IMG/VR virus record: IMGVR_UViG_3300030419_004440 | Coordinates: 24,939 to 88,938 of that record | From: a virus | Direction: 5' to 3' (one strand) | Length of the DNA: 64,000 nucleotides | Shown: in pieces, positions 33,810-51,170 of the stretch | How positions within the stretch are numbered: the first letter of the stretch is position 1 | How the letters are laid out: each line of letters begins with the position of its first letter | Notes under the pieces: generated by a model | Databases searched by the model: none | Told to the model about the DNA's origin: nothing | The model's input: the letters and a program-made list of their open reading frames with translations, nothing else | Position numbers and translations under genes: made by a program

Positions 33810-34813
33810 TTTTTAACTCCGTATGCGATGTCGAATGTTTTGTTCCAGTTATTTATAAAACTCTCTTCTGAGAAATTCTCAATTACCGTCTTTCTCGCCT
33901 CTTGACCCATTGATTTTCTGAGGTGTTCGTCACCTAAAAGAGTATGTATGTATTTTTTTAGTTCTTCTTCGTCGTTTGACATAAATCCGTTAACTCCGTT
34001 TTCTATGATTTCGGGAATCATACAGGTGGCGGTAGAAACGACTGCACATCCGCAGGACATCGCCTCTAGCAACGAGGTTGGAACTGGACTAATTGTAGAT
34101 GTGTTGAGAAATACTTTTGCCGTATTGTACTCTAGAACTAGGTCTTCTATCGACTCAGCGGGCTTTGAGAGGCCTTCTGAGCAAGTCCCAAGTAGTCTGG
34201 CCTCAAAACCTTCGGTCACTCTTTTCCAACCGTTGTAGTTGCAGCAGTAGTCACGATTTTTAAAATCGTTTACCACACTAAGAATTTCTGCGTGCGTGGC
34301 AGGTTCACCTTTTCTCTCTTCGGTGGGGCTAAATAGCTCTGTGTCAACAGAGTGATGAATTACTCGTGGATCACAGTTCATTTTCCATTGGTCGATTGAG
34401 TACTCGGAAATAAATAAATTTATATCTCCGACCATACTTCTAAAGGCTTGAAGCTGTTCTTGGGGCCAGCTAGGTATGGGGAGTGTATGCTCCAGAGAGA
34501 TTATTGGGATGTTAAGAGTTTGATTTATTTGACTGGCTACTTGGAACTGACCAAATTTACTTTGAGTCAAAATAAAATCGAATTCAATGCCTGAGATTAG
34601 ACTATTCTTTGGAAGAATATAATAATTGCCGGGAAGTTCAGCGTAGGTATTATCCCACTCTTTACAGTTATCGTATCTAAACGAGTAAAAATTGTGTCCA
34701 GTTTTACACAGCTGGGTCTGGTATCTCTCGTGCGTATCGAAGGTAAGTATGTTATACTTATCTTTAGTGGCATTTAGAGATCTATTTATAATACTTGCTG
34801 TTCTATGACTCAT
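33806..34813 (-). CDS. GT4 glycosyltransferase
   Basis: HSVDTELF, VFLNTS..PTSLLEAMSCG, IENGVNG. Confidence 0.85.
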   Translation of the reverse strand: MSHRTASIINRSLNATKDKYNILTFDTHERYQTQLCKTGHNFYSFRYDNCKEWDNTYAELPGNYYILPKNSLISGIEFDFILTQSKFGQFQVASQINQTLNIPIISLEHTLPIPSWPQEQLQAFRSMVGDINLFISEYSIDQWKMNCDPRVIHHSVDTELFSPTEERKGEPATHAEILSVVNDFKNRDYCCNYNGWKRVTEGFEARLLGTCSEGLSKPAESIEDLVLEYNTAKVFLNTSTISPVPTSLLEAMSCGCAVVSTATCMIPEIIENGVNGFMSNDEEELKKYIHTLLGDEHLRKSMGQEARKTVIENFSEESFINNWNKTFDIAYGVKK

Positions 34814-35945: not shown

Positions 35946-37621
35946 TGAATAAGACCTCGCTGTTTCATCACTTCTACCCGTTTTTGTTCCCAGACATTCT
36001 TTCTTGTGCACATAGATACCATCTGATCGTACGCAGTGTCAAAATTGAATTCAATTCTATGGTTTATGCCATCAAAAGCCGCTGACGACTCGTTAAAATA
36101 CATACCTCCGGTAGATGAGGTGGCAGACCGATAAAGCAAATCTCTTGTCATCCTAGCTTCAAACCATGTGTTGAGTTTGCTTGGTTCTCCTAAAACATTT
36201 ACAATTAACCATTTTGCAAGATTATTTGTTGAAAGCTGATTAGCATCTTTTGGTTTATCTGCGGGATTGTGGATGCTTGGTGGCGAAGCCCAAGTTTTTT
36301 GAACGGGCTCAAGCTCGATACTGTCAAAATAATCTTCCCACTTTTTACCACTTAAGTGCCACTGAAAGTGTTTTTCAAAATTAGACCTTGTTTTTTTGCC
36401 TATGGATTCCCTTTCTTCTTCAGATAGATCAAAGAATTCTTTAAACATTCTGGAGGCTAAGTCATTATCTGGAACCGCACGCAGGCAGCCAGTCTCTAGT
36501 TCTTTATATAATGCAGCCGGTTTTATTGGGTACCCCTCAAGCTTTCTAACCTCGCTTTCCATGGCTGAATAGTCCGTGGCCATGACCGGAACTCCACAGG
36601 CGGCGGCTTCTACAATTGGAAGACCAAAGCCTTCGCAGTTAGCATATTGAACATAAAGATCAAATAGATTGATTATATCGGATAACTGTTCGTAAGAGGC
36701 TCCATTCTTGACGTTGCTTAAGGTTGATCCCCACTTTCCGGTGTAAGGCGACTGTGCGACCGGACCATTAAAGAGAGATGGAAAAGTTTGCTTAGTTTCT
36801 GGGCATATGTAGGTAAATAAGACGTGAGAGGATAGTCCGTGCTCTTGAATCAACTCTGGTATGTCCCACCCTAAATCTGGATAAGATGTGTGGCAGTAGA
36901 GATAGTATTTCTTATCCTCTGATTGGTCTAGAAATTTTTTAAATGCTTCGAATAAGTCCGGGTAAAGCTTGCGTCTTTGATTACGCATAACCGTTCCTAA
37001 TATTTTATACTCTGGGTCTATTCCTAGAGATTTTTTATGCAAGGCCTTATCTTCTACTGGTTGATATGCCGGGTGTGCTGACGGGGGTGCTGACCCTAGG
37101 TAATTGATTTTACCTCCAGACTGATCTTTGAGAACTTCTCCGGCCCAGTCGGAATAAGTGAGGCAGGCGTCGGCGGACTGATATGTTGCCACCCATTGTC
37201 TAGCTTGGGGTCTAGCGTCTACCGTTGGCATAACAGCCCACTTGAAATAGTCTCTATATGGAGATCTTTCTGCGAATTCAAGCATCCAAAAGTCTCGTAT
37301 ATCGCAAACAATATCCGGCATAAAATCTAAACAGACATGCTCAAATATCCACTCCCCAAATTGGGCAGAGCCGTTAGATTGATAGGCCTGCAACTCTTCT
37401 TCTGAAGCTTTGGGTTCGCATGACTGGTTTGGTACGACACCGTAGTAACCCCAAGGTATGTTGGCGGCTCTGGGGTCATTTCTTTCTCCATAGGAGGACA
37501 TTTCTGCTATTACATACTTGTCAGTACTATGAAGATAGTTCAATATTTCTCTGGTATAAGTAGCATAACCCGTATTTAGAAACGTAGCTTCGCTACAAAA
37601 TAAAATTCTTTTCTTCCTCAT
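35942..37621 (-). CDS. GT4 glycosyltransferase with a C-terminal extension
   Basis: TGYA, RNQRRK, EGFGLPIVEAAACGVP. Confidence 0.88.
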   Translation of the reverse strand: MRKKRILFCSEATFLNTGYATYTREILNYLHSTDKYVIAEMSSYGERNDPRAANIPWGYYGVVPNQSCEPKASEEELQAYQSNGSAQFGEWIFEHVCLDFMPDIVCDIRDFWMLEFAERSPYRDYFKWAVMPTVDARPQARQWVATYQSADACLTYSDWAGEVLKDQSGGKINYLGSAPPSAHPAYQPVEDKALHKKSLGIDPEYKILGTVMRNQRRKLYPDLFEAFKKFLDQSEDKKYYLYCHTSYPDLGWDIPELIQEHGLSSHVLFTYICPETKQTFPSLFNGPVAQSPYTGKWGSTLSNVKNGASYEQLSDIINLFDLYVQYANCEGFGLPIVEAAACGVPVMATDYSAMESEVRKLEGYPIKPAALYKELETGCLRAVPDNDLASRMFKEFFDLSEEERESIGKKTRSNFEKHFQWHLSGKKWEDYFDSIELEPVQKTWASPPSIHNPADKPKDANQLSTNNLAKWLIVNVLGEPSKLNTWFEARMTRDLLYRSATSSTGGMYFNESSAAFDGINHRIEFNFDTAYDQMVSMCTRKNVWEQKRVEVMKQRGLIQ

Positions 37622-37622
37622 G

Positions 37623-37940
37623 TTATTCCTTATCCAGACATCCGAAGTCAAATTGGTTTACTCTAAACGTAATCAGCGTATCCTCTTCAGGCTCCATGTT
37701 CTTTGCTGAAGCGGTAACTGTCATCTTCATGCCAGACTTTCCTAGTTTGGCAATGGTTCTTCCCCCACTATCCCAAGCTCTAAGTCTGAGGAAGGTGGGA
37801 TATCTCTTCTTTTCACCCCTTTTGTTTCTGACGTATTCGTAAACGGTTAGGGTAAACTCGCAATATTCTGCACCGCTATCTTCATCTACGTCAATCTCTG
37901 GGTCACCATATAGGTATCCTGTAAACGTACAGTTGTTCAT
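37623..37940 (-). CDS. ssb: Single-stranded DNA-binding protein (short OB fold)
   Basis: MNNCTFTGYL..DPE, FTLTV, FLRLRAW pattern of bacterial SSB. Confidence 0.75.
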   Translation of the reverse strand: MNNCTFTGYLYGDPEIDVDEDSGAEYCEFTLTVYEYVRNKRGEKKRYPTFLRLRAWDSGGRTIAKLGKSGMKMTVTASAKNMEPEEDTLITFRVNQFDFGCLDKE

Positions 37941-37993: not shown

Positions 37994-38021
37994 AATTTTT
38001 CTCATCTTTTACGAATAAAAA

Positions 38022-39587
38022 TTATATTTCGTGCACCTTACTTACAATGAATGAGTTATCCCTCTCGACCTCTCCGCAAAATAAAAGATTGTTTCCTTCG
38101 TATAGCACATATTGGTATTTTTCTCTTGCCTCTGGAAAAATTACGACGCTATCTAAAGAACAAGTTGTGTCCTCGATGGTAAGAAACGCCATTAGTTTTC
38201 CTTTAGTTTTCCCTCTCTTGACCTTGTATGTGTTCATCCTGTTTATATTGGCTGCTATACATATATCTTTACCTGTTTTGCCGTTAAGAACATCTTTGCA
38301 GTAGGTGTTCGCTGAAGACGTGTCCGAAGATTCTACTTTTGATAACGATATTGGGCAACCTAGGAACTTATTCTCCTGCTCAATGATCCAAGCTGGGTCA
38401 TCGGACAGGTCGTACGGTGGAGATCTAAGCATCTCAACTTCATTAAGTACAATCTGACTTCTATTTGTGTTACTTGTTCCTCCTCCAAGTTTTTTTGTTG
38501 GTGCCAAATCAGCAAAGCAATCTTGTAACGTTTTCCATTTCTTCTTCGGGTAGTTTGTCACAACCCATTTTAATTCAGCTTTTGTAAGCTCTCTGAATAT
38601 TAAGTATTCATACAGAGCCTTGTTTCTTGTTACCCCCGTAGATTTAGTGGAAAAAAAACCGATTGACGCAAGAGCCTTAAACGCTGTTAAGTTTATTTTT
38701 GTTGATAACGTCGTTAAAACATCCATCCAGCTAAACTTTGAAGGGTCTTTTCCGGTCTCTTCAGATGCTTCTAGGATAGCTTTTATAGCCTTGTCTCCGG
38801 TCACACCGGTTAAACCTTTAATGTCTTTAACACCAAAATAAATTCCATCATCTGCTATTCTAAATTTTTTACTATGAGAGGATAGCTTGGGGATTTTTAC
38901 GTCTATGCCAAACAATTTAGCTTCATTTACTAGTTCATAGACTTCTTGGTGTGGATCTTGTTTTTCATTCGAGAAGTATAGATAAGACAGAAAGAATTCC
39001 TTGACGTGATTTGCTTTGTACCAAGCAGACCAATACGAGTCGACGGCATAAGCAACTGCATGTGATTTGTTAAACGAGTATCTTGAGGATTTTTCGATCC
39101 AGCCAAATATCTCAAGGGCTGTATCCTCATCAACGGTTCCAACATTTTTGCAGCCCGCTATGAAATCCTCTTTAATCTTCGCCATAAGGTCTGCTTTTTT
39201 CTTTCCGATAGCCTTACGTAGATCGTCAGCCTTTTTAAGGTCAAACCCCGCTAGCTTTTGTGCTATACGCATGGATTGTTCTTGGTACACTAGAACGCCA
39301 TAGGTTGGCTTTAGTATATCCTCAAGAGACTCATGTAAATAAGAAACCTCTTCAATTTTATGCTTCCTGTCTACAAATCTTTTGGTCATTGATTTTCCAT
39401 CAATAATTGCCTTGAGGCATCCCGGCCTAATTAAGGCTATAAGTGCGGCCAGTTCTTCTATATTCTCTGGCTGTAATTTTTTAGACCAGCTTCTACCAAG
39501 GTTGCTTTCAAGCTGAAAGACCCCCTTAGTCTTCCCCTCTTTAAAAAGCTCCCAAGTTTTTTCATCTTTATAATCAATGTTAGACAT
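38022..39587 (-). CDS. dnaE: DNA polymerase III alpha, C-terminal half (fingers, HhH, OB)
   Basis: GVFQLES, LIRPG, TYGVLVYQEQ, ADDLRKAIGKK, YSFNKSHAVAY, MAFLTIED; start MSNIDY at 39587. Confidence 0.92.
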   Translation of the reverse strand: MSNIDYKDEKTWELFKEGKTKGVFQLESNLGRSWSKKLQPENIEELAALIALIRPGCLKAIIDGKSMTKRFVDRKHKIEEVSYLHESLEDILKPTYGVLVYQEQSMRIAQKLAGFDLKKADDLRKAIGKKKADLMAKIKEDFIAGCKNVGTVDEDTALEIFGWIEKSSRYSFNKSHAVAYAVDSYWSAWYKANHVKEFFLSYLYFSNEKQDPHQEVYELVNEAKLFGIDVKIPKLSSHSKKFRIADDGIYFGVKDIKGLTGVTGDKAIKAILEASEETGKDPSKFSWMDVLTTLSTKINLTAFKALASIGFFSTKSTGVTRNKALYEYLIFRELTKAELKWVVTNYPKKKWKTLQDCFADLAPTKKLGGGTSNTNRSQIVLNEVEMLRSPPYDLSDDPAWIIEQENKFLGCPISLSKVESSDTSSANTYCKDVLNGKTGKDICIAANINRMNTYKVKRGKTKGKLMAFLTIEDTTCSLDSVVIFPEAREKYQYVLYEGNNLLFCGEVERDNSFIVSKVHEI

Positions 39588-40254
39588 ATAGTTTTCCATC
39601 TGCGAAAGCTTTTTCAAATTTCATGTTGCGATAAACTGCCCGTCTGGACTTTTGTAGTTTGATAAAGATATTTGCCGTATCCTTTACGTCTTGCAACGCG
39701 TCGTGTGCGTTTTCTGAAGACAGACCCATACGCTCTCTTAATGAGTCCATACTAATTGATTTAACGGCTGGGTCGCCTTCTGTCCAAAGCCATACGTCGT
39801 CCATAACATCAATTTTATATATCTGGTGGAACAGCTTCTGGCATTGGCGTTTATCGTCCCAAGGGCCGTATTCGTTGCATAGACGGTTGACGATATGCAT
39901 ATCGTACCCTATGATATTAAAGCCTGCTGGGATGGGTGCGAAATAAGGTGTTCCCTTCCAGTTGTATTTGTTAACAAAAGTACAGAATTTTTTCCAAACA
40001 CCTTTTGGCAACGGTGCTTTGGCAAGCTTCGATCTCGTTTGACCAGTCACCTTTAAGGCCCCCTCCTCAATTGGATCGACACCCGCTGCGATTGCTTTAT
40101 CATCGTCTAGGATTGGACGCATCATACTATTGAACTCCCCTTTTAGCTTGAAGTTTCTTCCGTCTAGTGCTATCGCTGCAATCTGTGTCGGCTGACACCT
40201 CATGGGATTTCTGCCGCCTGTTTCAAAGTCAAATACTATGATATCACGATTCAT
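39580..40254 (-). CDS. dnaQ: DEDDh 3'-5' exonuclease (DnaQ/epsilon-like)
   Basis: ExoI DFETGG, ExoII GFNIIGYD, ExoIII HDALQD. Confidence 0.88.
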   Translation of the reverse strand: MNRDIIVFDFETGGRNPMRCQPTQIAAIALDGRNFKLKGEFNSMMRPILDDDKAIAAGVDPIEEGALKVTGQTRSKLAKAPLPKGVWKKFCTFVNKYNWKGTPYFAPIPAGFNIIGYDMHIVNRLCNEYGPWDDKRQCQKLFHQIYKIDVMDDVWLWTEGDPAVKSISMDSLRERMGLSSENAHDALQDVKDTANIFIKLQKSRRAVYRNMKFEKAFADGKLYV

Positions 40255-41873
40255 ACTAACTCCTTAATCATCATTAGTTTATCTAAAAGATTAATGCCTA
40301 AAACATCAAACTTCACATGTCCGAGAGCCTCTAGGTCGGCCATTTCAAGGCCAGCGATTTTTTCTGTTCCGCTTTTAGGGTTAACCATGGGGCAAACTTT
40401 GTACAATTCGTCCGCTGAAATAACTACCCCAGCAGCGTGCTTTCCTTGGGTTTTAAATGTTCCCTCTATATTAATGGCCTGCTTAAAAAATTCCGCATAG
40501 TCACCGTCCAGTTCACCATTGTCATTTATAAAACAATAGTCCCTGAGTTCATCCGCATTATTAATAAGAGACCATCTAATAATTGATCTATCTTCCTCGT
40601 CCATCTCTGCGAGCTGGTCAGATATTGAAGCTTCGTCTGGTATTGATTTGGTAATCTCGTTCATCTCACTAAATCCGCAGGCACCACTCACACGCAAAAC
40701 CTCTTTTAAGGCACTTCTACCCTGTAGCCTTCCGAAGGTTATCATCTGGCTAACATTATTGTTTCCGTATTTATCTTTGAGGTAAGTAATTATTTCGTCA
40801 CGTTTCCCACCCGGAACATCTAGATCAATATCTGGAAGAGATATGTGGTCCTCTGTATTTCTACCGGCATTGTAAAATCTTTCAAAGAGAAGGTCATATT
40901 CAATAGGGTCAATTTGGGTAATTCCGATAAGATATGATATCAGGCACCCAGCCGCAGACCCTCTACCCGGACCCACCATCCACCCTTGTGCGGTGGCATA
41001 TTTTATGATGTCTCTTACAATCAAGAAATATCCAAAGAGTTTGGCCTCTTCAATAACTTTAAACTCTTCCTCGAACCTTTCTCCATAGACCTTTTTCTCT
41101 TCTTGCTTTGTAATTTTGTCTGCAAGAAGTTTTCTCCACCCGTCTCTGGCTAATTCTCTAAGGTAGTTCTTTTGGGAATCTCCGTTAGGTGTTTCAAACC
41201 TCGGAAGTATAGGCTGGCTCAATATGTTGTAGCATTCGCACTTATCGTATATTTCCTTAAAAAGATGAAGTTTGTTGTCGTTGATTATGACTTCACCAAT
41301 TTCGGTTTTATTTTTTAGGTAAAAGTCGTTGGATTCAAAAAACACATGGTTGCTGACATCTTCCCCGTTTTTTATAGATTTGCTGAGTTTTGGCAATGTC
41401 GTTTTCATGCTCGAACACAAAATAATTCTGTGCAGCTCTGCGTCTTCTTTGTTTGTGTAGTAAGTGTCCATGAAAGCTTCGCTTTTTTCATAGAAGTCTT
41501 TCCCCTTGATTGGAGACTGGGATTCACTTGACGCAACTGAAATTAAATTACCAGACTTGGTTATGGCAAGCAATGTATTGGAATCTAAATTTCCGTCGCT
41601 GTCTATAGAAGAGACAAGCTCGATTAGATTAAGCCAGCCATCTTTGTTTTTAGCAAACAGAGAAAATTCGTCAAAAGAGCAGCCAATAATAGGCTTGATA
41701 TTGTTTGCCACACAAGCTTGATAAAAAGAAACGGCACCGGAGATTGACTTATAGTCCGCTATACCGCAAGCTGGGTAAAAATTTTCTGAGCATTTTTTGG
41801 CGAGCTGTTTTGGCTTAGAGAAGCCACGCTGTAATGAGTAATGTGTATAGTTGCAGATTGGGAACCAGTCCAT
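40251..41873 (-). CDS. dnaE: DNA polymerase III alpha, N-terminal half (degenerate PHP, palm, thumb)
   Basis: THYSL, GPGRGSAAG, LLFERF, PDIDLD, GKHAAGVV, KFDVLG. Confidence 0.93.
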   Translation of the reverse strand: MDWFPICNYTHYSLQRGFSKPKQLAKKCSENFYPACGIADYKSISGAVSFYQACVANNIKPIIGCSFDEFSLFAKNKDGWLNLIELVSSIDSDGNLDSNTLLAITKSGNLISVASSESQSPIKGKDFYEKSEAFMDTYYTNKEDAELHRIILCSSMKTTLPKLSKSIKNGEDVSNHVFFESNDFYLKNKTEIGEVIINDNKLHLFKEIYDKCECYNILSQPILPRFETPNGDSQKNYLRELARDGWRKLLADKITKQEEKKVYGERFEEEFKVIEEAKLFGYFLIVRDIIKYATAQGWMVGPGRGSAAGCLISYLIGITQIDPIEYDLLFERFYNAGRNTEDHISLPDIDLDVPGGKRDEIITYLKDKYGNNNVSQMITFGRLQGRSALKEVLRVSGACGFSEMNEITKSIPDEASISDQLAEMDEEDRSIIRWSLINNADELRDYCFINDNGELDGDYAEFFKQAINIEGTFKTQGKHAAGVVISADELYKVCPMVNPKSGTEKIAGLEMADLEALGHVKFDVLGINLLDKLMMIKELV

Positions 41874-41957
41874 TTTCTATCCTTGTTCAACGCAATTAAA
41901 TTCAATGTTTAGGGGTTTTTATATGAGAACCCCTTAACTCAAATGTTTGTGTACTAT

Positions 41958-41985
41958 ATTATAGTCTAAATACTGTTAAAGCCAA
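41958..41985 (-). promoter_or_regulatory. Sigma70-like promoter TTGGCT-N16-TATAAT upstream of dnaE-N
   Basis: Perfect -10 box on the - strand at 41958-41963 in the intergenic gap. Confidence 0.5.
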
Positions 41986-41993
41986 AGGGAAAT

Positions 41994-42662
41994 CTAGAAA
42001 TTTTTAAGCTCTGGGAACAGATCGTATCTAATATTTTCCCACACAGCAGCAGAAATTATCATAGAAGCCTCGTTATCAGAAGGATAATGCACGCCTTGAA
42101 GCATCCTAGCCATACCCGCAGCCGACACCTTAGAAAAAAACTCAGACGAATAATCTGGGTATTTCGCTGAGAGAATATAGGCACCAAGTGCGGCATACGC
42201 CGTATGACCAGAGGGGTAGGCTGGCGTGTGATGAGTACTGGTCTCAGTAACCCTTATTTTAATATCATATATAGGTGCCAACTGGTAAGGTCTAGGTCTA
42301 TTAAATTTATATTTCAAATTTTTAATAACCGGAGATATTATGTCCCAAGCCTTGCCAAACATTTTATAGGGAAACTCCAACCCGTGCTTCTTCAAAATTT
42401 TGTGGTAAAGAAGGTTTGGGTTGGCGTCTACTAGTTTAATTAGGTCTAGCTCAGAGCTGCTTAGATTGCTTGTTAGCTCAGATATGTAGGCTAACTCCTT
42501 TTTGGTGGTCTCGCTACTATTATCTGGAGGGTCAGCGAGAACTTCTTTCCAGCCTATGGTAACGCTTTCGGGTACTCTGAATTCCCTTTTCTCATCGCTA
42601 TATTTAAAGCTGTCTATTTTATCTAGGACAACCTTGTCTAGTTCTTCTATATATTTAGTCAT
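41994..42662 (-). CDS. PAP2/acid phosphatase-haloperoxidase family protein
   Basis: KxxxxRxRP (KYKFNRPRP), YPSGH, RMLQGVHYPSD. Confidence 0.88.
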   Translation of the reverse strand: MTKYIEELDKVVLDKIDSFKYSDEKREFRVPESVTIGWKEVLADPPDNSSETTKKELAYISELTSNLSSSELDLIKLVDANPNLLYHKILKKHGLEFPYKMFGKAWDIISPVIKNLKYKFNRPRPYQLAPIYDIKIRVTETSTHHTPAYPSGHTAYAALGAYILSAKYPDYSSEFFSKVSAAGMARMLQGVHYPSDNEASMIISAAVWENIRYDLFPELKNF

Positions 42663-42957
42663 TGTCTACCAACGCGGGGTTTTGGATTGTTTTTGTTCTG
42701 TCATTCATTTGTTCACATATGGGACACATGGGTTGCTCTCCCGGCTTGTGAAGTCCAATCTGATGATGTGTCATCAGGATGCCTTCCATCATTTTCGTAT
42801 CTCGCATCATTGTTTGTTCCTGTAGAATTTTTATTTCTGGGTGTGGGGCAACAATAACGTTGGGTTTTTTTAGTTCATTAAACATATAAGCACTAAAGCC
42901 CAAGTTACACATACTAAGGGCGAACAGTACATATACTGCACATTTAAAAAATTTCAT
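42655..42957 (-). CDS. Membrane-anchored small protein with a His/Cys motif
   Basis: N-terminal hydrophobic helix; HHQIGLH...CPIC. Confidence 0.55.
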   Translation of the reverse strand: MKFFKCAVYVLFALSMCNLGFSAYMFNELKKPNVIVAPHPEIKILQEQTMMRDTKMMEGILMTHHQIGLHKPGEQPMCPICEQMNDRTKTIQNPALVDND

Positions 42958-42968
42958 CTTGACACCTG

Positions 42969-44183
42969 TTAGGAAAATAGTTCGGAAATTACTTTTCCTG
43001 AATTAGCTATTTTCATAGGTCGTCCGCTATTACTTGAGAAAGTAGTGCTTAACGAAATGCCGAGTGCCTTACAAATCGAGGCCATGACATCTTGGGAGGA
43101 ATAAGGTTCTGTCTCCACTCTGGTGCCATCTTCGTTTGTTGCACCAACGGCGATACCGCCATTCATACCAGCACCACCAACGACAACGCTCCAACTTCGT
43201 GCCCAGTGGTCACGACCGGCGTTTTGGTTGATACGTGGAGTTCGACTAAATTCACCCATCCATATGATAGCTGTGTCCTCCAATAACCCTCTTTGCTCTA
43301 AGTCCTCTACTAACGCACTCATACCTTGATCTAGCATGGGTAACTTTGTATCTCTTAAGGTTGGGAAGATGTTCTGGTGATTGTCCCAGCCCCCTAGTCC
43401 AACTTCTATAAACGGAACACCGACCTCTACTAAACGTCTAGCCATTAGGCACCCCTTACCAAAGCTGTTGTCTCCGTATCTTTCTCTTACATCTTCTGGT
43501 TCGTTTGCTACCTTCATCGCGTCCATCTCTTTACTAGTAAGAACGTTGAAGGTCTTTCTCAATACTTTTTGGTGTTCTTTGGCCAGCGATCCCCTATTAC
43601 TGTTTATAAAATTGGTTTCCATCATATCTAGAACATGTGCCCTTTGATAAAATCTTTGATCTATTTTCATATCTAGATTTCTAATTCTACCGTCGCTATT
43701 GACAGAGAAGGGGTTGTATTGAGCACCTAAAAATCCAGCACCTTGGCTGGGTCCGTTTACGGATACAAATTGTGGAATTAAAAGATCTTGTTTTTCTAGC
43801 TGCTTAGAAATAACCGAGCCATAGCTTGGATGAACCATGCTTGGATTAGGTACATATCCGGTGTGCATATAGTAGCGTCCACGCATATGGTCTGCTTCAC
43901 GGGTGCTCATGCTGCGAATGATTGCCATGTTGTGCATTTGCTTTGCCATTAGTGGCATATGTTCGCAAATCTCTACGTCGCCAGTAGTGCTTATAGGCTT
44001 AAATGGACCTCCGGTTGGGGCGTCTGGTTTTAAATCCCAGATATCCATAGTAGAAGGGCCACCTCCCATCCATAAGAGAATGGCCGACTTCCCATTTTTC
44101 TTTAGCTCTTGTTGGTTGGCTTTTAGCGTTTGCGTCAAAGCAGCAATTCCAGCTAGTGATGATAAAAACTCTCTCCTTTTCAT
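42969..44183 (-). CDS. DUF1501 family protein with Tat signal (paralog A)
   Basis: MKRREFL Tat motif; GGGPSTMDIWDLKP, GGWDNH, GEFSRTP, GRDHW. Confidence 0.9.
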   Translation of the reverse strand: MKRREFLSSLAGIAALTQTLKANQQELKKNGKSAILLWMGGGPSTMDIWDLKPDAPTGGPFKPISTTGDVEICEHMPLMAKQMHNMAIIRSMSTREADHMRGRYYMHTGYVPNPSMVHPSYGSVISKQLEKQDLLIPQFVSVNGPSQGAGFLGAQYNPFSVNSDGRIRNLDMKIDQRFYQRAHVLDMMETNFINSNRGSLAKEHQKVLRKTFNVLTSKEMDAMKVANEPEDVRERYGDNSFGKGCLMARRLVEVGVPFIEVGLGGWDNHQNIFPTLRDTKLPMLDQGMSALVEDLEQRGLLEDTAIIWMGEFSRTPRINQNAGRDHWARSWSVVVGGAGMNGGIAVGATNEDGTRVETEPYSSQDVMASICKALGISLSTTFSSNSGRPMKIANSGKVISELFS

Positions 44184-44485
44184 TCTTCTGTAGCCTTTCC
44201 TATGTAATTTAGGAATACCCCGTCTTTTTTGTAGACACCTTTTCTCCTGTATGTAAATATCTCGCCGGTTTTAGGGTTTTCATACCTGTACCCGCCCTGC
44301 TCTTTTTCCCAAGATAGTTGCAGGTCAGCAGACTCCACATAACTTAATCCTTCAGATGCTTTGCTCATACAGACAGCAGTTCTTTGCTTCTGATCTGGAT
44401 ATTCAGACTTCATTTTATCGCTGCTCATGCAGCGAGACATAAAGTCCTTTGGGTTTTCATTCTTATCCTTAGATGGTAAAGGCAT
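44180..44485 (-). CDS. Conserved phage hypothetical protein
   Basis: MPLP...FMSRCM...YPDQKQRTAVC pattern; AGGAG RBS. Confidence 0.55.
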   Translation of the reverse strand: MPLPSKDKNENPKDFMSRCMSSDKMKSEYPDQKQRTAVCMSKASEGLSYVESADLQLSWEKEQGGYRYENPKTGEIFTYRRKGVYKKDGVFLNYIGKATEE

Positions 44486-44494
44486 TGCTTCTCC

Positions 44495-44887
44495 TTAAAA
44501 TCTGAAGTGAAAAAAGAATCCGCTAAACGGCGTGGGGTATACGGGTACAGGTTGGGGTTGAACAATAACCGGAGGTCCGTAATAATTATAGATCATTGGC
44601 GATCTATACACCCTGTAATAATATGGATGTATGTAATATTGATTGCCAATAATTATTCTATTTTGCCTATGGTTGGGCTGGACCTGCGGCTGTTGCATTT
44701 GTGGCTTTTGCCAATCCTGCTTACCCGGAATCTGAGGTCTTTGCGGAACGCGTTTCTGTCCAGCTAAATTAACCGGAGGTTTAATAACTTTTCTTTGCTG
44801 TGCCACTTGTGCCTGTGCATCACAGGGCTGTGCTAAAACAGCCCCGCAAAGCACTACACAAAAGACTAATGATAAAATTGATTTCAT
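44495..44887 (-). CDS. Secreted low-complexity Gln/Pro/Tyr-rich protein
   Basis: Sec signal MKSILSLVFCVVLCGAVLA; YYGPPVIVQPQPVPVY..FFFHFRF tail. Confidence 0.65.
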   Translation of the reverse strand: MKSILSLVFCVVLCGAVLAQPCDAQAQVAQQRKVIKPPVNLAGQKRVPQRPQIPGKQDWQKPQMQQPQVQPNHRQNRIIIGNQYYIHPYYYRVYRSPMIYNYYGPPVIVQPQPVPVYPTPFSGFFFHFRF

Positions 44888-45270
44888 CGTCTTGGTCCTC
44901 TATGCTCAGGTTTTTTACACTGAGGACATGCTCCGCCTCTTTTAGGATGCATGTGTGGCCCCCTTCTGTGATGAGGATGCTTTCCTCGTGGGTCATGATT
45001 AGGTCTACCTTCTGGCCTACCTTCTGGTCTACCTTGAGGTCTACCTTGAGGTCTACCTTGAGGGGGTCGTTTTGAATCAGCCCACGGCGGTTTGCCTTCG
45101 GGTCTGCGGCGTGAAGATCCACCATAACGACACCCTCTGCATCGTTCTGGCTTGCAGCATTTGCAACCGCAATCGTGTTGAGGTTTTCTCTTATCGGGAC
45201 CGTCTGCAAGCAAAGATGCGGGAGCCGCCAAACATGAGCCTAACATAAATAATACACTTCTTCTATTCAT
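44884..45270 (-). CDS. Tat-signal Cys/His/Arg-rich small protein with GRP(Q/E) repeats
   Basis: MNRRSVLF..ASLLA signal; CGCKCC, CRGC, CPQC; His cluster. Confidence 0.65.
   Translation of the reverse strand: MNRRSVLFMLGSCLAAPASLLADGPDKRKPQHDCGCKCCKPERCRGCRYGGSSRRRPEGKPPWADSKRPPQGRPQGRPQGRPEGRPEGRPNHDPRGKHPHHRRGPHMHPKRGGACPQCKKPEHRGPRR
45002..45063. repeat. 12-bp tandem repeat, about 5 copies (GGTCTACCTTGA/TCT), encoding GRPQ/GRPE
   Basis: Directly visible in the sequence. Confidence 0.9.
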
Positions 45271-45285
45271 AATATTTCCCTTTCG

Positions 45286-46542
45286 TTAAATAATTAAATC
45301 TTGAATGACTTGTCCACCGTCAACAATTTCAATTGGACGATCACCGGGAGCCATTAGCTCTTTATCAGCAACAATACCCAATCTGTTATAGATGGTAGCT
45401 GCCCAGTCCTCTATGCTGACTGGGTTTTGGTCGGGGTCACTAGCGGTTGCGTTGGACGTACCGTAGGTAATACCCCTTTTGATCCCACCGCCAGCCATAA
45501 CAGTACTAAATACCTTTGGCCAGTGGTCTCTTCCTGCGTTAGCGTTGATTTTTGGAGTTCTGCCAAACTCTGAGACGACGCAAACCAATGTGGAATCTAA
45601 TAATCCGCGATCATCCAAGTCTTCGATAAGGGTTGCAAAGCCTTGATCAAAAGCCGGTAGCTGACTTTTCATGCCATTAGATATGTTATCGTGCATATCC
45701 CAGCCGCCGTAGGTGAGTGTTACGAATCTTGTTCCAAACTCTACTAGTCTGCGGGCCAGCAGCATTCTAGCTCCCGCAGTATTTCTTCCATACCTGTCTC
45801 TTAAGGCCGCTGGTTCTTTTTCTATATCAAATGCTTCTCTTGCATTTTGATCTCCTATGAGACTATACGCCCTCTGATAAAAAGAGTTCATAGCGACTAA
45901 AGAATCTGCATCTTCTTTCTTGTTAAATTCAGTGTTCACTATATCTAGAACACGTTGCCTTCTGCTAAATCTTGCGTCTGGAACTGGAACCTTTAAGTCT
46001 CTGACTTCAAAATTTTCGCTAGCGGGGTCGGAGCCTAGTCCGAACCCAGAATATGAACTGCTTAGATATCCAGTACCTGCAAATTCATTAGGCTGGTTTG
46101 GGATGCAGACATACGGAGGAAGGTTTTTACGCGGTCCGAACTCATGTGCAACCACTGAACCCATAGATGGGTATTGAAGGGCTGGGCTAGGTCTATAGCC
46201 AGTAAACATATTGTGTGTACCACGCTCATGGGCTGCTTCTCCGTGTGTCATGCTACGGATAATAGCAATCTTGTCTGTTATCTTCGCAGTTTTACCTAGT
46301 AGCTCTCCAAGACGAATGCCCGGAACATTGGTTTCAATACTACCAAGTGGCCCACGATATTCTAAAGGGGCGAATGGCTTAGGATCAAATGTTTCCTGAT
46401 GAGCCATTCCCCCCGGAAGGTAAATGAAAATAATGCTCTTAGCTGGCCCCTCCTTGCTATCATAATGTTTTTGATCTGCTCTAGCAAGAGACACACCAAG
46501 ACTACCTAAGATTCCAGCTTGTAAAAAAGACCTTCTTTTCAT
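45286..46542 (-). CDS. DUF1501 family protein with Tat signal (paralog B)
   Basis: MKRRSFL start at 46542 with AAGGA RBS; GGMAHQETFDPKP, GGWDMH, SEFGRTP, GRDHWP. Confidence 0.9.
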   Translation of the reverse strand: MKRRSFLQAGILGSLGVSLARADQKHYDSKEGPAKSIIFIYLPGGMAHQETFDPKPFAPLEYRGPLGSIETNVPGIRLGELLGKTAKITDKIAIIRSMTHGEAAHERGTHNMFTGYRPSPALQYPSMGSVVAHEFGPRKNLPPYVCIPNQPNEFAGTGYLSSSYSGFGLGSDPASENFEVRDLKVPVPDARFSRRQRVLDIVNTEFNKKEDADSLVAMNSFYQRAYSLIGDQNAREAFDIEKEPAALRDRYGRNTAGARMLLARRLVEFGTRFVTLTYGGWDMHDNISNGMKSQLPAFDQGFATLIEDLDDRGLLDSTLVCVVSEFGRTPKINANAGRDHWPKVFSTVMAGGGIKRGITYGTSNATASDPDQNPVSIEDWAATIYNRLGIVADKELMAPGDRPIEIVDGGQVIQDLII

Positions 46543-46556
46543 TATTTGTTCCTTGT

Positions 46557-46697
46557 TTAGAATAAAAATCTCGACCACCACCCTTGGGATGCCCCCAAGA
46601 AGTAGAGTCCCACTAAAATACCTCCAACTAAGGCGGTTCGTCTAACCAGCCTATTTTCTCTCACAAAATTAGCAATCGGACCATTAAATAATGGCAT
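46557..46697 (-). CDS. 46-aa single-TM membrane protein, missing from the ORF track
   Basis: GGAGG RBS; translates as MPLFNGPIANFVRENRLVRRTALVGGILVGLYFLGASQGWWSRFLF; fills the gap between two DUF1501 genes. Confidence 0.7.
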   Translation of the reverse strand: MPLFNGPIANFVRENRLVRRTALVGGILVGLYFLGASQGWWSRFLF

Positions 46698-46714
46698 AGT
46701 TACCTCCATTAAAA

Positions 46715-47977
46715 TTAAAGAATTACTTTCGCTTCACCCTCCAACAAATATCTGGGACGACCAGACATGTCGGTACGTTGAATTGCTCCGTCAATTCCAA
46801 AATGGTCAAACAGCGTTGCTTGCAAATCAAGTGGCCCCACTGGGTTTTCTATGGGGCTGTATGATCTATCTGCCTCACCAATCGTTCTTCCTGATTGATA
46901 TCTTCCGCCAGCCATCATCATCGGCGTAATTGCGGGCCAATGGTCACGTCCAGCGTTTGCGTTTATTTTAGTTCTACCAAATTCTCCCGTAACGACCAAG
47001 AGGACTTTTTCATTTAATCCACGATCCCATAAGTCTTGTAGAAACCCCCCTATTGCTTTATCAATGGGTGCGACCCTTTTCTTTAGTGCATCTGAAATAT
47101 TGCTATGCATATCCCATCCGCCATAATGCAGGGTCACAAACTTGGTTCCATGTTCTACCAACCTTCTCGCCAACATCATCTGTTCGCCAATGTCGTTAGC
47201 TTTTTCAGATCCGTAAAGAGCTTTAGTTGCTTCTGACTCTTTATCTGTAGCAAAGGCGTCTTTAGCAGAGCCTAGAATAACATCGTAGGCCTGACCTTTA
47301 TAAAAACCAACTGACTCAGCACTTTTGCCAGATATATCACTAGCGGCTGAACCTAAAGCACTCAGAAGTTGCTTTCTATTGTTGAATCTATCGAGTTGGA
47401 TTCTTGGTGTTAGGTTGTCTTTGTTAGAGGGGTCAAATGGCTTATATGCCCCGCCTAACCAAGCCCCTTCATCTCCCTCAATCTTTCCTTGCTTTACATA
47501 AGATGGCACCCCGTTTTGAGGGTGGTTAGTTCCGTAAACAGCAGATATCAGAGAACCAAAAGAGGGGTATTTGGCAGTAGACGTAGTAGTCCTTTCTGGA
47601 TTATAGTGTCCAGTCATCATAAAGTGAGTGCCCTGCCTGTGAGATGAGTCCTTATGACTAAAGGAATTTACAACATTTAGCTTTGAAGTATGTTTAGAGA
47701 GTTCGTACCAATCTTCCCCTAGCGTAATATTTGTTTTGGGGTCGTGCTTGGCACCATTTACTGGTTGCCACTCTGTTGGGACAGTGTCTTTTGGGGCATG
47801 AAAAGTTTCAAATTGTGTTGGACCTCCCCCAAGCCACACCCAAACAACTGATTTATCGCCGTAACTTTGTACTGTATTTGCAGCGAAAGCGGCGTCAGAC
47901 AGACCAGCGGCGGTCATTCCTGCTCCAATAGATCCAATCCTAAGAAAATCCCTTCTGTTAAAGTAAAAATCTAACAA
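46715..47977 (-). CDS. DUF1501 family protein with Tat signal (paralog C)
   Basis: NRRDFL..AAFA signal; GGGPTQFETF, GGWDMH, GEFGRT, GRDHWP; TTG start with GGAG RBS. Confidence 0.9.
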   Translation of the reverse strand: MLDFYFNRRDFLRIGSIGAGMTAAGLSDAAFAANTVQSYGDKSVVWVWLGGGPTQFETFHAPKDTVPTEWQPVNGAKHDPKTNITLGEDWYELSKHTSKLNVVNSFSHKDSSHRQGTHFMMTGHYNPERTTTSTAKYPSFGSLISAVYGTNHPQNGVPSYVKQGKIEGDEGAWLGGAYKPFDPSNKDNLTPRIQLDRFNNRKQLLSALGSAASDISGKSAESVGFYKGQAYDVILGSAKDAFATDKESEATKALYGSEKANDIGEQMMLARRLVEHGTKFVTLHYGGWDMHSNISDALKKRVAPIDKAIGGFLQDLWDRGLNEKVLLVVTGEFGRTKINANAGRDHWPAITPMMMAGGRYQSGRTIGEADRSYSPIENPVGPLDLQATLFDHFGIDGAIQRTDMSGRPRYLLEGEAKVIL

Positions 47978-47995
47978 TTTTTCATCTCCATATGC

Positions 47996-49033
47996 TTACC
48001 CCGGAGCTTCATAAAAGCCTATATTGAAGCCCGGACGCGTGCATTCTTCTAAAGTTTTTTCCATACCATGTTCTTTTAAGTGCTTCTCTATATATATACA
48101 CATTTTTTCGTCTGTGCCCTCCCAATTGTTTTTGCAAAAATGGCACAGATATTTGCATTTCCAGTGATTTCTCGTAGGATCTAGGAGTTTAGGGCTATTA
48201 TTTTGTCTAATTTCTTCGACTCTAATTCTCAACATCTCCAAGAATCTAGCCTCATCGCTTTTGTCAAACATCAATGAAAATGGTCTTGGATCTGGGTCTC
48301 CATCTTTATCCTTATAAAAGAAGATGCTCATAATTCTATTTGGGTATTCTGGATATAGTTTGGATATAGCGTAGAAGTATAATAAAAGCTGTGCATCGTT
48401 CTCTAGCTTCTCATAATCTTTTACTTCTCCTGTTGCCCAGTCCATACGTCTGCCGGTTTTCCAGTCAATCACCTCTATGGTGTCGTCGTTTAGCTTTGTT
48501 ACAAGGTCAATTGTACCTTTAATTGCTAGCTGGCCTTCAACCTTTTCTCCATTTATTTCGTATTCAAATTTAGCCCAATCTTCTTCAATGGGGATGTCAA
48601 AGTGGGGTTCGGGGTGGTGAATATTTCTAAGTCTGGGGTCGAACTGACCGTCGCTATGTCTTAGAAATGTCCATACAGTCTCCGATATATCTCGTCTATC
48701 TTTTGGCCCAAATTTATGTTTAGAATTTTTTGCATAACAATCAATAGCAATATTGCACAGTTCATCAACGAAGTCGTCTGTATACAGACTATCCTTATGG
48801 ATTCTAATTTTTCCAGCAGCATCGTCTTCTACAACGAGGTACTTTTTTCTTGAGTTATCCTGCTGAAACTTTTTTAATCCTGCTAGAATTTCCATAACTT
48901 TGTGAGCCATAGTACCCATGTCCGCCTTTTTCCCACTGTCGGACTGGTGGCCTAATACATATGTTATGAAATATTGCATCTGGCAAAACGCGTAGTTGTT
49001 ATAGCTTGAGCTTCTAACGTAAGTGACTAACAT
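47996..49033 (-). CDS. PD-(D/E)XK nuclease, Cas4/AddB-like with putative Fe-S cysteines
   Basis: N-terminal Cys, GTMAH, GTIDLV..IDWKTG, QLLLY, C-terminal CKYLCHFC..C. Confidence 0.82.
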   Translation of the reverse strand: MLVTYVRSSSYNNYAFCQMQYFITYVLGHQSDSGKKADMGTMAHKVMEILAGLKKFQQDNSRKKYLVVEDDAAGKIRIHKDSLYTDDFVDELCNIAIDCYAKNSKHKFGPKDRRDISETVWTFLRHSDGQFDPRLRNIHHPEPHFDIPIEEDWAKFEYEINGEKVEGQLAIKGTIDLVTKLNDDTIEVIDWKTGRRMDWATGEVKDYEKLENDAQLLLYFYAISKLYPEYPNRIMSIFFYKDKDGDPDPRPFSLMFDKSDEARFLEMLRIRVEEIRQNNSPKLLDPTRNHWKCKYLCHFCKNNWEGTDEKMCIYIEKHLKEHGMEKTLEECTRPGFNIGFYEAPG

Positions 49034-49779
49034 TTGGTCTCCTGTAGACTAGAGTAAAAGTTACTAACCTTCACCATCATGCCGTCTATACTGTTTTCGC
49101 TATTGTCTATAATATCTGTGAAGGGATATTTATCAAGAGCTATCTCGCTAGAGTGGTTGTCTTCAAAGACTCTTCTAGTAAGCCTTACTAGGTTTCCACC
49201 AACCTCTTGGATGGCTTTTGCTTCGTTTGGAAATCGCACATCTGCTATAATGGCTAATTCCGATTTTTCATCTTGTATAGTTGCTAGGCAGCTTTTCACC
49301 CATACCGGTTCGTACATTTTACGCATAACATCTGTGCCAAAGAATTGCATAAATTCGCGGGATGTCATGGCCCCCTTCCTTTTTGGGTTATTAAACATCT
49401 CTAAACAGGGCATGTTTTCCCATCTTAAGTGGTCTTGTTTAAGATTTTTTTCTTCGTCTGTTCCCCAGAGGCATTCTCTTGGAATGTCAAATAGTTTAAG
49501 GCATATAAGTTTTAAGTGATCTGCAAAGCTATAGAGCTTAACATATGGCCACATGTTGTGCTCTGCGTACTGCACAAAGCTTTCGTCTCTCCTTGACACA
49601 TCAAACTCACCCCAGCCCTCTTTCCCGTCTTTGTTTTCAGTAAGGATCATAAGCCCCCCGTTTTGGCTAATATTCCAGTCCTTAATGAGACCATTATTCT
49701 TTAGCGATATACCATGTAGTATATTAGCTGTTGTATTTTTACCCGACTGTTTTCTTCCGGATATCCCCAGTATCTTCAT
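49027..49779 (-). CDS. Deoxynucleoside monophosphate kinase
   Basis: GRKQSGKNT P-loop, SFADHLK, REFMQFFGTD, DVRFPNE, HSSE. Confidence 0.88.
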   Translation of the reverse strand: MKILGISGRKQSGKNTTANILHGISLKNNGLIKDWNISQNGGLMILTENKDGKEGWGEFDVSRRDESFVQYAEHNMWPYVKLYSFADHLKLICLKLFDIPRECLWGTDEEKNLKQDHLRWENMPCLEMFNNPKRKGAMTSREFMQFFGTDVMRKMYEPVWVKSCLATIQDEKSELAIIADVRFPNEAKAIQEVGGNLVRLTRRVFEDNHSSEIALDKYPFTDIIDNSENSIDGMMVKVSNFYSSLQETKC

Positions 49780-50828
49780 TAGAAGCATCCTCCAAGATTT
49801 ATCAAAATTTCATTTTTAATTTTTTCGATTGACATATTCCCTAAGTCCTTAGTGTGCATTTTTGGAAAAACCAATTTAAACAACCTAGCCAAATCTCTCT
49901 TTATCTTTATTTTAGCTTCTCTTCCAGCCTGATCGTTATCTGTTAGAATTATTAATTTTGTAACTCCGCTGCTTAGTAGGGTTGCACGCTGTTTTCTGGA
50001 TATATCTTTACCAAAAAGACCAACAGCGTTTTGGACTCCCGACTCGTGCAGCCTCCATACGTCGCCCTGCCCCTCAACTAAGAAGATGCACTTGGTTTTA
50101 CGTGCCGTTTTAATCGCGTTGTCGTAATTATATAAATGGTCTGTTTTTTTAAAGCCATCAGAGAATAGGTATTTAGGCTGTACCCATTCTTTGGTCGCTC
50201 TAGCAATAAATCCAACGGTTTTGCTTTCATGTGTTACTGGAATGATCGACCTGTTTCTCATGACTAATGAGTCACTATCACGAACACCAAAATGCTTCAA
50301 TGTTTCACTTTTAAACCCTCTGCTTTCAAAATACGGGGAGCCCTCTAGCATTTTTTGGGGGAATGGGCCTATCAAAACTTCGCTAGACGACTTGTTTGCA
50401 AAAGCTTTTCGTTTCCCCTGTTTAAACTGATTTACTAAATCTCTAAACTCTTTGCTGTCGTTGTCATTTTTTATTTCATTTGTTCTTGTTGTCTGGGCGT
50501 TATCGACATCGTATAAGTTGCAAATATATCTTAGTGCTTCTGAAAAAGATTCTGTATCCAGCACACCTTTTACAAATCCGAATATATCTGTATTGTATTC
50601 TTCATGGCACCCGCGAGTCCAGCACCTCCAAGCTTTTCTGCTTGTGGATATTGATAGCCCCTGTGGGTTATCGCTCCCTTCGTGAATCGGACAGCACATA
50701 AATATGTTATCGTCTACTTGGTTATATTCCAACCCAAGATCATCCAAAAGAACTTCTATATTGTTAAATATGATATCTTTTACTTTATTTAAGTCTAGTG
50801 TCTTACTCTTTGTTTTTTGTGAGTTCAT
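49779..50828 (-). CDS. dnaG: DNA primase (CHC2 zinc finger plus TOPRIM)
   Basis: CPIH..CWTRGC; KYLFS; VEGQGD; DNDQAG. Confidence 0.88.
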   Translation of the reverse strand: MNSQKTKSKTLDLNKVKDIIFNNIEVLLDDLGLEYNQVDDNIFMCCPIHEGSDNPQGLSISTSRKAWRCWTRGCHEEYNTDIFGFVKGVLDTESFSEALRYICNLYDVDNAQTTRTNEIKNDNDSKEFRDLVNQFKQGKRKAFANKSSSEVLIGPFPQKMLEGSPYFESRGFKSETLKHFGVRDSDSLVMRNRSIIPVTHESKTVGFIARATKEWVQPKYLFSDGFKKTDHLYNYDNAIKTARKTKCIFLVEGQGDVWRLHESGVQNAVGLFGKDISRKQRATLLSSGVTKLIILTDNDQAGREAKIKIKRDLARLFKLVFPKMHTKDLGNMSIEKIKNEILINLGGCF

Positions 50829-50964
50829 ACCATAGGAATCCTATATTTGCTGTTGCGTATGCAAACCATATAAGTGCGTGAGGAAAATCTCTTTGTCTCA
50901 GGTTGTCTACACCACAAGCGAAGTAGCATAGCGTACAAATAATTATTGCGTATATTGCTAACAT
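50803..50964 (-). CDS. 53-aa two-TM small membrane protein, missing from the ORF track
   Basis: MLAIYAIIICTLCYFACGVDNLRQRDFPHALIWFAYATANIGFLWYELTKNKE; TAATG overlap with the upstream gene. Confidence 0.65.
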   Translation of the reverse strand: MLAIYAIIICTLCYFACGVDNLRQRDFPHALIWFAYATANIGFLWYELTKNKE

Positions 50965-51170
50965 TACTTTTTCTCTTTTTTTGGGGGCATGTATCCAAAA
51001 ATATGCCCACAGGTAAACCCAGTAGCAAAAGCAATAAATGGTGCTTCTAGGGCAGAGTTTTGCATAAACCTACTAACACTTAGTGGTATCCCGCCGTGGA
51101 ATACCGCCAATAGATCATACATACCTAAAGCGATAACTGAGAACGTTACTATTTTTGCTGTTAATGACAT
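50964..51170 (-). CDS. Small two-TM membrane protein
   Basis: Two hydrophobic segments; GHIF motif; TAATG coupling to guaC. Confidence 0.6.
   Translation of the reverse strand: MSLTAKIVTFSVIALGMYDLLAVFHGGIPLSVSRFMQNSALEAPFIAFATGFTCGHIFGYMPPKKEKK

Follow-up and report, generated by a model that had tools for sequence, protein, structure and literature searches.

Why should a phage carry, among its replication genes, several members of an exported protein family that is best known from planctomycetes? The question is raised by a stretch of 64,000 nucleotides (the window), bases 24939–88938 of the 88,938-bp IMG/VR record IMGVR_UViG_3300030419_004440, the completeness of which is ~53% (CheckV). 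Nine open reading frames (ORFs) stand there between a Cas4-like nuclease gene and dnaE, all on the minus strand and tightly packed, with gaps of 5–18 nt or overlaps of 4–8 nt: three DUF1501 genes (copies A, B and C), a PAP2 phosphatase gene, and five small genes (sp100, p101, sp130, sp128 and tm50). An earlier reading made from the letters alone (the sequence-only reading) had taken these nine co-oriented genes, with three intact DUF1501 copies bearing twin-arginine signals and the family motifs, for one undescribed auxiliary module that remodels the host periplasm. The coordinates and the shared orientation were confirmed, as were the three intact copies (Pfam 7e-66 to 7e-114, RRxFL in all); the single module was not. 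The explanation that we prefer, with a probability of roughly 0.6, is that a large marine tailed phage carries here an auxiliary cassette of host enzymes, by which those of the host itself would be supplemented. That the cassette consists of exported DUF1501 proteins derived from a host is, in our judgement, very likely.

Each DUF1501 copy covers the entire Pfam profile (PF07394, gathering score 27; matches of 351.6, 381.4 and 223.5 bits), and the pairwise identity of A, B and C is 28–36%. In all three, RRxFL is followed by a moderately hydrophobic h-region (Kyte-Doolittle 1.1–1.8), and by this motif they are predicted substrates of the twin-arginine translocation (Tat) system; the WDxH, EFGRT and GRDHW motifs were also found in every copy. 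In the numbering of copy B, G44, H105, D282, H284, E325, R338, D339 and H340 are invariant or nearly so among 144 diverse DUF1501 members. Across 188 full-length phage copies, H105, D282, H284, E325, R338 and H340 are present in all, and D339 in all but one; the twin arginine is found in 186, the other two having KR, and the second arginine is kept in 188 of 188. Relative to the conserved residues of the family, the C type departs only at D53 and R96: the substitutions D53H and R96N are present in 55 of 55 phage C copies, while the closest non-phage relatives retain D and R. No stops or frameshifts were seen, and the near-universal retention of the invariant residues in the phage copies rules out a decaying island, a doubt that the sequence-only reading had itself raised.

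The genes with which DUF1501 is usually paired are missing. In the 88.9-kb record there was no match to DUF1549, DUF1553 or DUF1800 (PF07583, PF07587, PF08811), host partner proteins used as tblastn queries found nothing in it, and no CxxCH motif was found anywhere in the island; the absence of partners noted by the sequence-only reading thus extends to the remainder of the record, where it had allowed that they might lie. For export, TatC is encoded in all five candidate host genomes, and no TatA-like gene was found in the phage record. The small protein tm50 was considered as a recognisable TatA and rejected, as it has no TatA match.

The key addition to the sequence-only reading is that A and B are, by sequence comparison, 64–77% identical orthologues of specific Planctomycetota genes, and that they were captured separately. 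A scan of one genome per species recovered B, at 66–77% identity and full length, in 80 Planctomycetota records (Pirellulaceae, Planctomycetaceae, Fuerstiella and Mariniblastus), several of them contigs of 0.45–1.27 Mb. This cellular orthologue stands apart from the A and C types and from type D, a fourth paralogue found in related phages. Nearly every one of the 80 loci that extends far enough encodes, after B, a protein of ~800 aa with a PPC domain and then an 800–970-aa PSCyt2/PSD1 protein with Big_2. Copy A has exactly one orthologue in each of five Pirellulaceae genomes (64–71% identity, the next best match being 42%), directly downstream of a gene for a 588–595-aa PSCyt2/PSD1 protein; the cellular partners of A and of B have one CxxCH apiece. 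Orthologues of D, at 52–61% identity, are present in three of these five genomes, and the best match of C in the same five reaches 35–38%. The planctomycete genomes themselves carry DUF1501, with its PSCyt/PSD1 partners, in tens to ~100 copies (24–109 first-look candidates and 7–29 matches per genome).

Phylogenetic trees (FastTree, 268 rows; IQ-TREE, 66 rows) resolved A, B and D as three distinct clades, each containing both phage and cellular sequences, with support of 99–100 (99 for the A clade). The B of the window nests within Planctomycetaceae beside two low-GC contigs from marine metagenome-assembled genomes (L093 and L096), both of which carry the cellular partner genes. Copy C belongs to a phage-only clade (support 100), and its sister non-phage representatives are 42–47% identical. 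When all phage sequences were constrained to one clade, the log-likelihood fell by 1053 and the constraint was rejected by the approximately unbiased (AU) test (p-AU 1.2e-5), the phage group having been defined after the tree had been seen. Origin of the paralogues by duplication inside phages is rejected by this test, and the paralogues are therefore separate captures; this also bears out the view, in the sequence-only reading, that they are no recent tandem duplication. Since the donor of the DUF1501 genes is a planctomycete, the host is likely a planctomycete as well (Planctomycetaceae/Pirellulales), an assignment in which we place good though not complete confidence.

Two further observations concern the cellular and viral relatives of these genes. 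Three contigs filed as viral (L066, L068 and L070) carry a B-like DUF1501 gene (58% identity) with PSCyt2/PSD1 tblastn matches a few kb away, and these are either phages that carry a partner or cellular fragments filed as viral. In one Pirellulaceae genome (G003), lipid A biosynthesis genes (LpxD-like and LpxI) come after the A-type orthologue (L173:9347–11540); this neighbourhood is not conserved in a second genome (L174) and may be a coincidence.

The slot between the Cas4-like nuclease and dnaE was surveyed with the nuclease as marker in 49 related loci that reach far enough downstream. One to four DUF1501 genes stand directly after Cas4 in 24 of them; the other 25 have none, and most of these keep PAP2 (40–50% identical) and/or the p101 family before dnaE. 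One such locus reads Cas4, a glycosyltransferase-like gene, the C-terminal part of a p101-family gene, PAP2 and dnaE, and another relative has one DUF1501 gene only, then PAP2, then a full-length p101 of 367 aa. Because PAP2 and p101 share the slot in relatives without DUF1501, the nine genes are not one module, and PAP2 as a functional part of the DUF1501 set was rejected for its occurrence in those relatives. Comparison of the loci thus points to a mobile cassette made of the DUF1501 genes and some of the small exported proteins, in which PAP2 and p101 are older residents of the slot. The 282-aa glycosyltransferase-like gene that fills the slot of one DUF1501-less relative (L234:11042–11890) indicates that the slot collects different cargo by lineage.

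In PAP2 itself, the residues of the motifs KxxxxxxRP, PSGH and SRxxxxxHxxxD are invariant across 31 homologues, and its AlphaFold2 model has a predicted local distance difference test score (pLDDT) of 94.5. The nearest structures are an acid phosphatase (7f17, Z 19.3), PhoN (18.1) and a third acid phosphatase (18.1). It resembles the class A acid phosphatases PhoN and PhoC in its soluble all-helical fold (Z 18–19.3, root-mean-square deviation (rmsd) 2.6–3.2 Å) and differs from them in having an N-terminal helix in place of a signal peptide and in being a gene of the phage lineage, independent of DUF1501. The maximum N-terminal hydrophobicity is 0.40, and residues 2–17 form an amphipathic helix instead; PAP2 thus has no recognisable export signal, a correction to the sequence-only reading. 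Its homologues (~720, of ~221 aa) come from marine assemblies, and the candidate host genomes yielded no orthologue. The p101 family reaches 367–524 aa elsewhere, with DUF5824 at the C-terminus, and the p101 of the window is an N-terminal fragment, probably a remnant rather than a member of the exported set.

A hydrophobic N-terminal or transmembrane segment is present in four of the five small ORFs (sp100, sp130, sp128 and tm50). The sequence-only reading had called these small exported metal-binding proteins: the export signals hold in the four, and 'metal-binding' is a matter of composition only (sp128, sp100). Of the 63 loci that have two or more DUF1501 genes, 29 contain sp100, 17 sp130, 12 the sp128 family and 12 PAP2, and in 18 a PhoH gene is adjacent. 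The hydrophobic segment of tm50 comprises residues 27–38; the protein is 69–86% identical and in the same place in four loci (L004, L005, L014 and L071), 74% identical and in a rearranged order in two (L009 and L057), and has no Pfam or PHROG match. The N-terminal hydrophobicity of sp130 is 3.12, and for sp100 an Atlas search gave no informative match. The sp128 protein has 9 Cys, 8 His and three CxxC motifs; Pfam searches with longer relatives gave a sub-threshold EF-hand match, and in related phages the position of sp128 is occupied or followed by paralogue D. Long minus-strand ORFs overlap here in different frames (44820–45209 and 44884–45270), of which the sp128 frame has phage relatives. 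The region is repetitive (RPQG/RPEG) and fast-evolving: in one relative it is 50% identical, against 96% for the genes beside it.

The cassette is widespread, and uniqueness to this genome, another doubt attached to the sequence-only reading, is not borne out. A scan of IMG/VR with B gave 100 related viral stretches, of which 79 loci were kept (identity 40–96%, contigs up to 320 kb). The replication block of this phage is shared by 80 viral loci. In a large protein collection, homologues of B number at least in the thousands and are marine, the best 120 being 75–98% identical, from marine/Tara samples and on contigs up to 171 kb. By tblastn synteny, the gene order C-(tm50/p101)-B-(D)-sp130-A-sp100-(PAP2) recurs in dozens of contigs. 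Paralogue D stands between B and sp130 in ~15 contigs; it is absent from this record, and no remnant of it was detected in the window. Among GenBank phages (INPHARED, tblastn) there were two partial, weak matches only, so no cultured phage carries the cassette. Over the 20 loci in which primase, Cas4, C and B are all present, B has a median identity of 81% to the window and C of 77%; the medians are 68% for Cas4, 52% for primase and 50% for the deoxynucleoside monophosphate (dNMP) kinase. B and C are thus more strongly conserved than the flanking genes, in keeping with strong purifying selection. On sequence grounds, then, the cassette is host-derived, resides in a genuine phage genome and is kept by selection, the features by which auxiliary metabolic genes are recognised.

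Mosaicism and variation of the cassette were also observed. When positions 38000–51000 were compared with a related record (L004, IMGVR_UViG_3300030419_003589), the identity was sharply mosaic, with 93–97% for Cas4, C, B, A and the exonuclease, 60–62% for primase and dNMP kinase, and 74% for dnaE. This pattern suggests that diverged phage backbones exchanged the cassette block by recent recombination. A further DUF1501 type stands right after Cas4 in another relative (L186:5882–7123): it has 413 aa and an RRDFL signal and is 33–38% identical to C. Similar loci are L185, L187, L190, L194, L197–L199, L232, L253 and L262; in some phages this type is the sole DUF1501, and a 64-aa membrane protein precedes it. 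It may be a fifth captured orthogroup.

To place the DUF1501 proteins structurally, copy B was modelled with AlphaFold2 from 144 sequences (pLDDT 93.9, predicted template modelling score 0.91). In a structural search the best match was ENPP6 (Z 19.6, rmsd 3.0 Å, 244 residues aligned), followed by the Xanthomonas (Xac) nucleotide pyrophosphatase/phosphodiesterase (NPP; Z 19.4), ENPP7 and ENPP4 (19.3) and the alkaline phosphatase PafA (19.1). Sulfatases reached a Z of 17.8 at most, and EptA/MCR-1, LtaS and PbgA scored ~15–16. Foldseek points to the same superfamily, with low template modelling scores. In the model, the fold is predicted to be that of the alkaline-phosphatase superfamily, nearest to the two-metal NPP/PafA phosphoesterases. 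The conserved D-x-H and D-H pairs are placed where the superfamily has metal ligands; GG takes the place of Asp after strand 1, and E-F is aligned with the D-H of sulfatases and NPPs. Pfam Phosphodiest falls below its cut-off of 23 (22.7 bits for C, 16.4 for B), no Pfam Sulfatase match was obtained for the DUF1501 copies, the formylglycine motif C/S-x-P/A-x-R was not found in A, B, C or D, and copy C contains no cysteine at all. Searches of the PDB with the single protein and with the 144-sequence profile gave nothing significant and no DUF1501 structure. The family is a distinct branch of the superfamily and a separate family: its core fold matches those of NPP/ENPP, PafA and S1 sulfatases (Z 19.6 to 14.5 over ~245–270 residues), the sulfatases no better than further branches of the superfamily, and conserved D-x-H and D-H motifs follow the core strands; it differs in its identity of only 10–17% and in lacking the formylglycine motif.

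From these results the following course of events can be drawn. The phage lineage took different host DUF1501 genes into the variable slot in separate events (A and B here, D in relatives), C being an older or faster-evolving copy. The PSCyt2/PSD1 partner genes, which bear signals and CxxCH, were left behind, and for B the PPC-domain gene also. The cassette genes would be co-transcribed with the replication block; the DUF1501 proteins would fold and load metal in the cytoplasm and then be exported through the Tat system of the host. Once in the periplasm, the phage copies could replace or top up the host A-type and B-type enzymes on the haem-motif partners of the host, so that ester hydrolysis, probably for phosphoester nutrient acquisition, would be sustained while host expression is shut down and nucleotides are required by the phage. 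A nutrient role would fit the phage genes for PhoH, MazG, ribonucleotide reductase (RNR) and dNMP kinase, and the PhoH and MazG that the sequence-only reading had cited are indeed in the window. Copy C, with D53H and R96N, may be a phage-evolved variant of altered specificity; sp100, sp130, sp128 and tm50 may be accessory, and PAP2 and p101 would be unrelated residents of the slot. That the phage copies work with host partners is a real possibility at slightly short of even odds; phosphoester chemistry is more tentative, and it is slightly favoured over sulfoester hydrolysis. The fullest version of the proposal joins several such steps: repeated capture of catalytic DUF1501 subunits that dock on host PSCyt/PSD1 proteins, with at least one phage-specific enzyme (C, D53H/R96N) of new specificity, giving a minimal, partner-dependent form of a system of Planctomycetes–Verrucomicrobia–Chlamydiae (PVC) bacteria and a marker that ties ~150–170-kb ocean phages to planctomycetes. 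As a whole we consider it somewhat unlikely.

Several points weigh against the supplementation of host enzymes as set out here. The Z margin between the NPP-type enzymes and sulfatases is small (19.6 vs 17.8), the nucleophile and the metal ligands are assigned from motifs, and no solved structure or substrate was found for any DUF1501 protein in the PDB and the literature searched. The domains of the host partners (Big_2, PPC and a hyaluronate-lyase-like beta domain) hint at glycan substrates. Copy C lacks a close orthologue in cells: its best match among 301 Planctomycetota genomes, with five candidates per genome scored, was 42%. It is from the identity of the gene donor that a planctomycete is put forward as the most likely host. 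No RNA run containing the island stretch was found, and the partner genes could be in the half of the genome that the record lacks.

Other explanations of the locus were weighed on the same evidence. Mis-assembled host DNA, or a recent neutral insert heading for decay, would fit the slightly higher GC content of the island (43.6% vs 41.5% for the whole record) and the read depth, which in the source run rises locally above the DUF1501 genes. Such peaks, however, are accounted for by related strains that collapse onto conserved genes, and the junctions Cas4-C and A/PAP2-dnaE recur in many independent contigs from different samples. The run that covers the stretch best yielded a 23.7-kb Logan contig that spans dnaE, PAP2, sp100 and the end of A with zero differences; among the listed Logan pieces no contig bridged the junction of C and Cas4. 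With intact reading frames, and copies more conserved than the neighbouring replication genes, an artefact or passenger is extremely improbable, and the chimeric assembly against which the sequence-only reading had warned does not apply. A more serious alternative is that the enzymes act against the host or against competing phages: without partners, they would change a structure of the cell surface or the periplasm, such as a receptor, or titrate host PSCyt/PSD1 proteins, and such titration would block superinfection or disable a host function, aided by the small exported proteins. The loss of the partner genes, the two substitutions of C at otherwise nearly invariant positions, the variable small exported proteins alongside the enzymes and the related fold of envelope-modifying enzymes (EptA/MCR-1, LtaS and PbgA) would all suit such envelope remodelling, exclusion or decoy. 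A decoy would not, however, call for the separate capture of three or four orthogroups, and the retention of the invariant residues across the 188 phage copies, together with the identity of A and B to their host orthologues, is the pattern expected of a conserved catalytic function. Because these family residues are intact, the sequences favour supplementation of host enzymes over a decoy, and we regard envelope remodelling, exclusion or decoy as improbable.

The host could also be supplemented by a different chemistry. Sulfated algal polysaccharides are the classic planctomycete diet, and the cassette might provide carbon or sulfur from them by desulfation or another cleavage of glycan esters. 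Sulfatases are the most numerous structural neighbours of the B model (Z 15–17.8), all PDB profile matches were to sulfatases (E 0.015–2.6), the host partners have Big_2 and hyaluronate-lyase-like beta domains, and carbohydrate-binding domains have been described on such partners (Kamneva et al. 2012, PMC3542564). Set against this, none of the four paralogues has the formylglycine motif and C is without any cysteine; the best structural matches are to NPP and PafA enzymes, and the weak Pfam matches are to Phosphodiest, not Sulfatase. Desulfation therefore stands at low probability in our estimate, and phosphoester hydrolysis is retained as the tentative chemistry of the supplementing cassette.

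Modules that join DUF1501 with PSCyt1/PSCyt2/PSD1 (DUF1549/DUF1553) were described in Planctomycetes, Verrucomicrobia and Lentisphaerae (Kamneva et al. 2012, PMC3542564). The phage proteins are like the DUF1501 components of these modules in being full-length and in having the twin-arginine signal, and A and B are orthologues from two module types, B from the four-gene DUF1501-PPC-PSCyt/Big_2/PSD1 type and A from the two-gene PSCyt2/PSD1-DUF1501 type. They differ in that the phage carries the DUF1501 component only, strings together three (elsewhere one to four) DUF1501 genes from different modules, interleaved with small exported proteins, and has in copy C a protein changed at conserved positions. 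In the phage literature searched, the sole mention of DUF1501 was an incidental domain match on a 61-aa ORF of a Pseudomonas phage; nothing relevant was found on the partner domains or on auxiliary genes of planctomycete phages, and, as the sequence-only reading had supposed, no published description of the cassette was found.

Cyanophages offer a functional precedent: their psbA and psbD supply subunits of a host machine, and pstS, phoA and phoH are phosphate-stress genes. The cassette resembles such auxiliary genes in its host derivation, in purifying selection, in encoding one component, and in the PhoH, MazG and nucleotide genes alongside. It differs in that its products are predicted to be exported by Tat, that several paralogues were captured independently, and that they belong to an orphan family.

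The features of the island and the borders of the slot are collected in the table. For copy B the start was set at the ATG at 46542, not at 46581, because the homologues have 418 aa. Near the island are genes for PhoH, MazG, a RecA-like protein, dNMP kinase, DnaB, primase and class I RNR. None of the nine island genes matched a PHROG, NCBIfam gave no match for the DUF1501 copies or the small proteins, and a scan for promoters and terminators found signals at chance level. The dnaE gene (38022–41873) is in two parts, an N part of 540 aa and a C part of 531 aa, and a 224-aa DEDD-type exonuclease gene lies between the halves and overlaps both, an arrangement that is kept in related phage loci. 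A long co-oriented gene run at 18500–37650 contains several glycosyltransferases (PHROG 2170 matches at 34803–37651).

Table. Genes of the island and of its two borders, in window coordinates.
Feature	Position	Strand	Description
Cas4-like PD-(D/E)XK nuclease	47996..49033	-	upstream border of the slot; Pfam PDDEXK_1 2e-21, PHROG exonuclease
DUF1501 copy C	46715..47977	-	420 aa; TTG start; NRRDFL Tat motif; Pfam 7e-66
tm50	46557..46709	-	50 aa; single hydrophobic helix; between C and B
DUF1501 copy B	45286..46542	-	418 aa; KRRSFL Tat motif; Pfam 7e-114
sp128	44884..45270	-	small Cys/His/Arg/Pro-rich protein; RRSVL signal-like N-terminus
sp130	44495..44887	-	Sec-type signal peptide, then Gln/Pro/Tyr-rich region
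p101	44180..44485	-	N-terminal domain only of a larger phage family; no signal
DUF1501 copy A	42969..44183	-	404 aa; KRREFL Tat motif; Pfam 8e-105
sp100	42655..42957	-	small; N-terminal hydrophobic anchor or signal; conserved HHQxGxHKPG..PMCPxC motif
PAP2	41994..42662	-	class A acid-phosphatase homologue; Pfam 3e-15
Split dnaE, N-terminal part	40251..41873	-	downstream border of the slot; from ORF and synteny

To our knowledge, planctomycete phages are almost unknown, and the host phylum has almost no characterised phages. The cassette suggests which hosts a widespread, abundant group of large marine phages may infect, and with it enzymes predicted to reach the periplasm by Tat export join the genes known to be borrowed by phages from their hosts. 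DUF1501 is one of the largest orphan families of Planctomycetota, and its function has been unsettled since the description of 2012. The retention by phages of three or four members stripped of their partners points to those that matter most during infection, and the cassette offers small, expressible proteins for biochemistry and complementation. If docking on host partners were true, the cassette would be the first clear genomic marker linking an abundant ~150–170-kb ocean phage clade to planctomycetes, and a pared-down form, dependent on partners, of the largest orphan system of exported enzymes in PVC bacteria.

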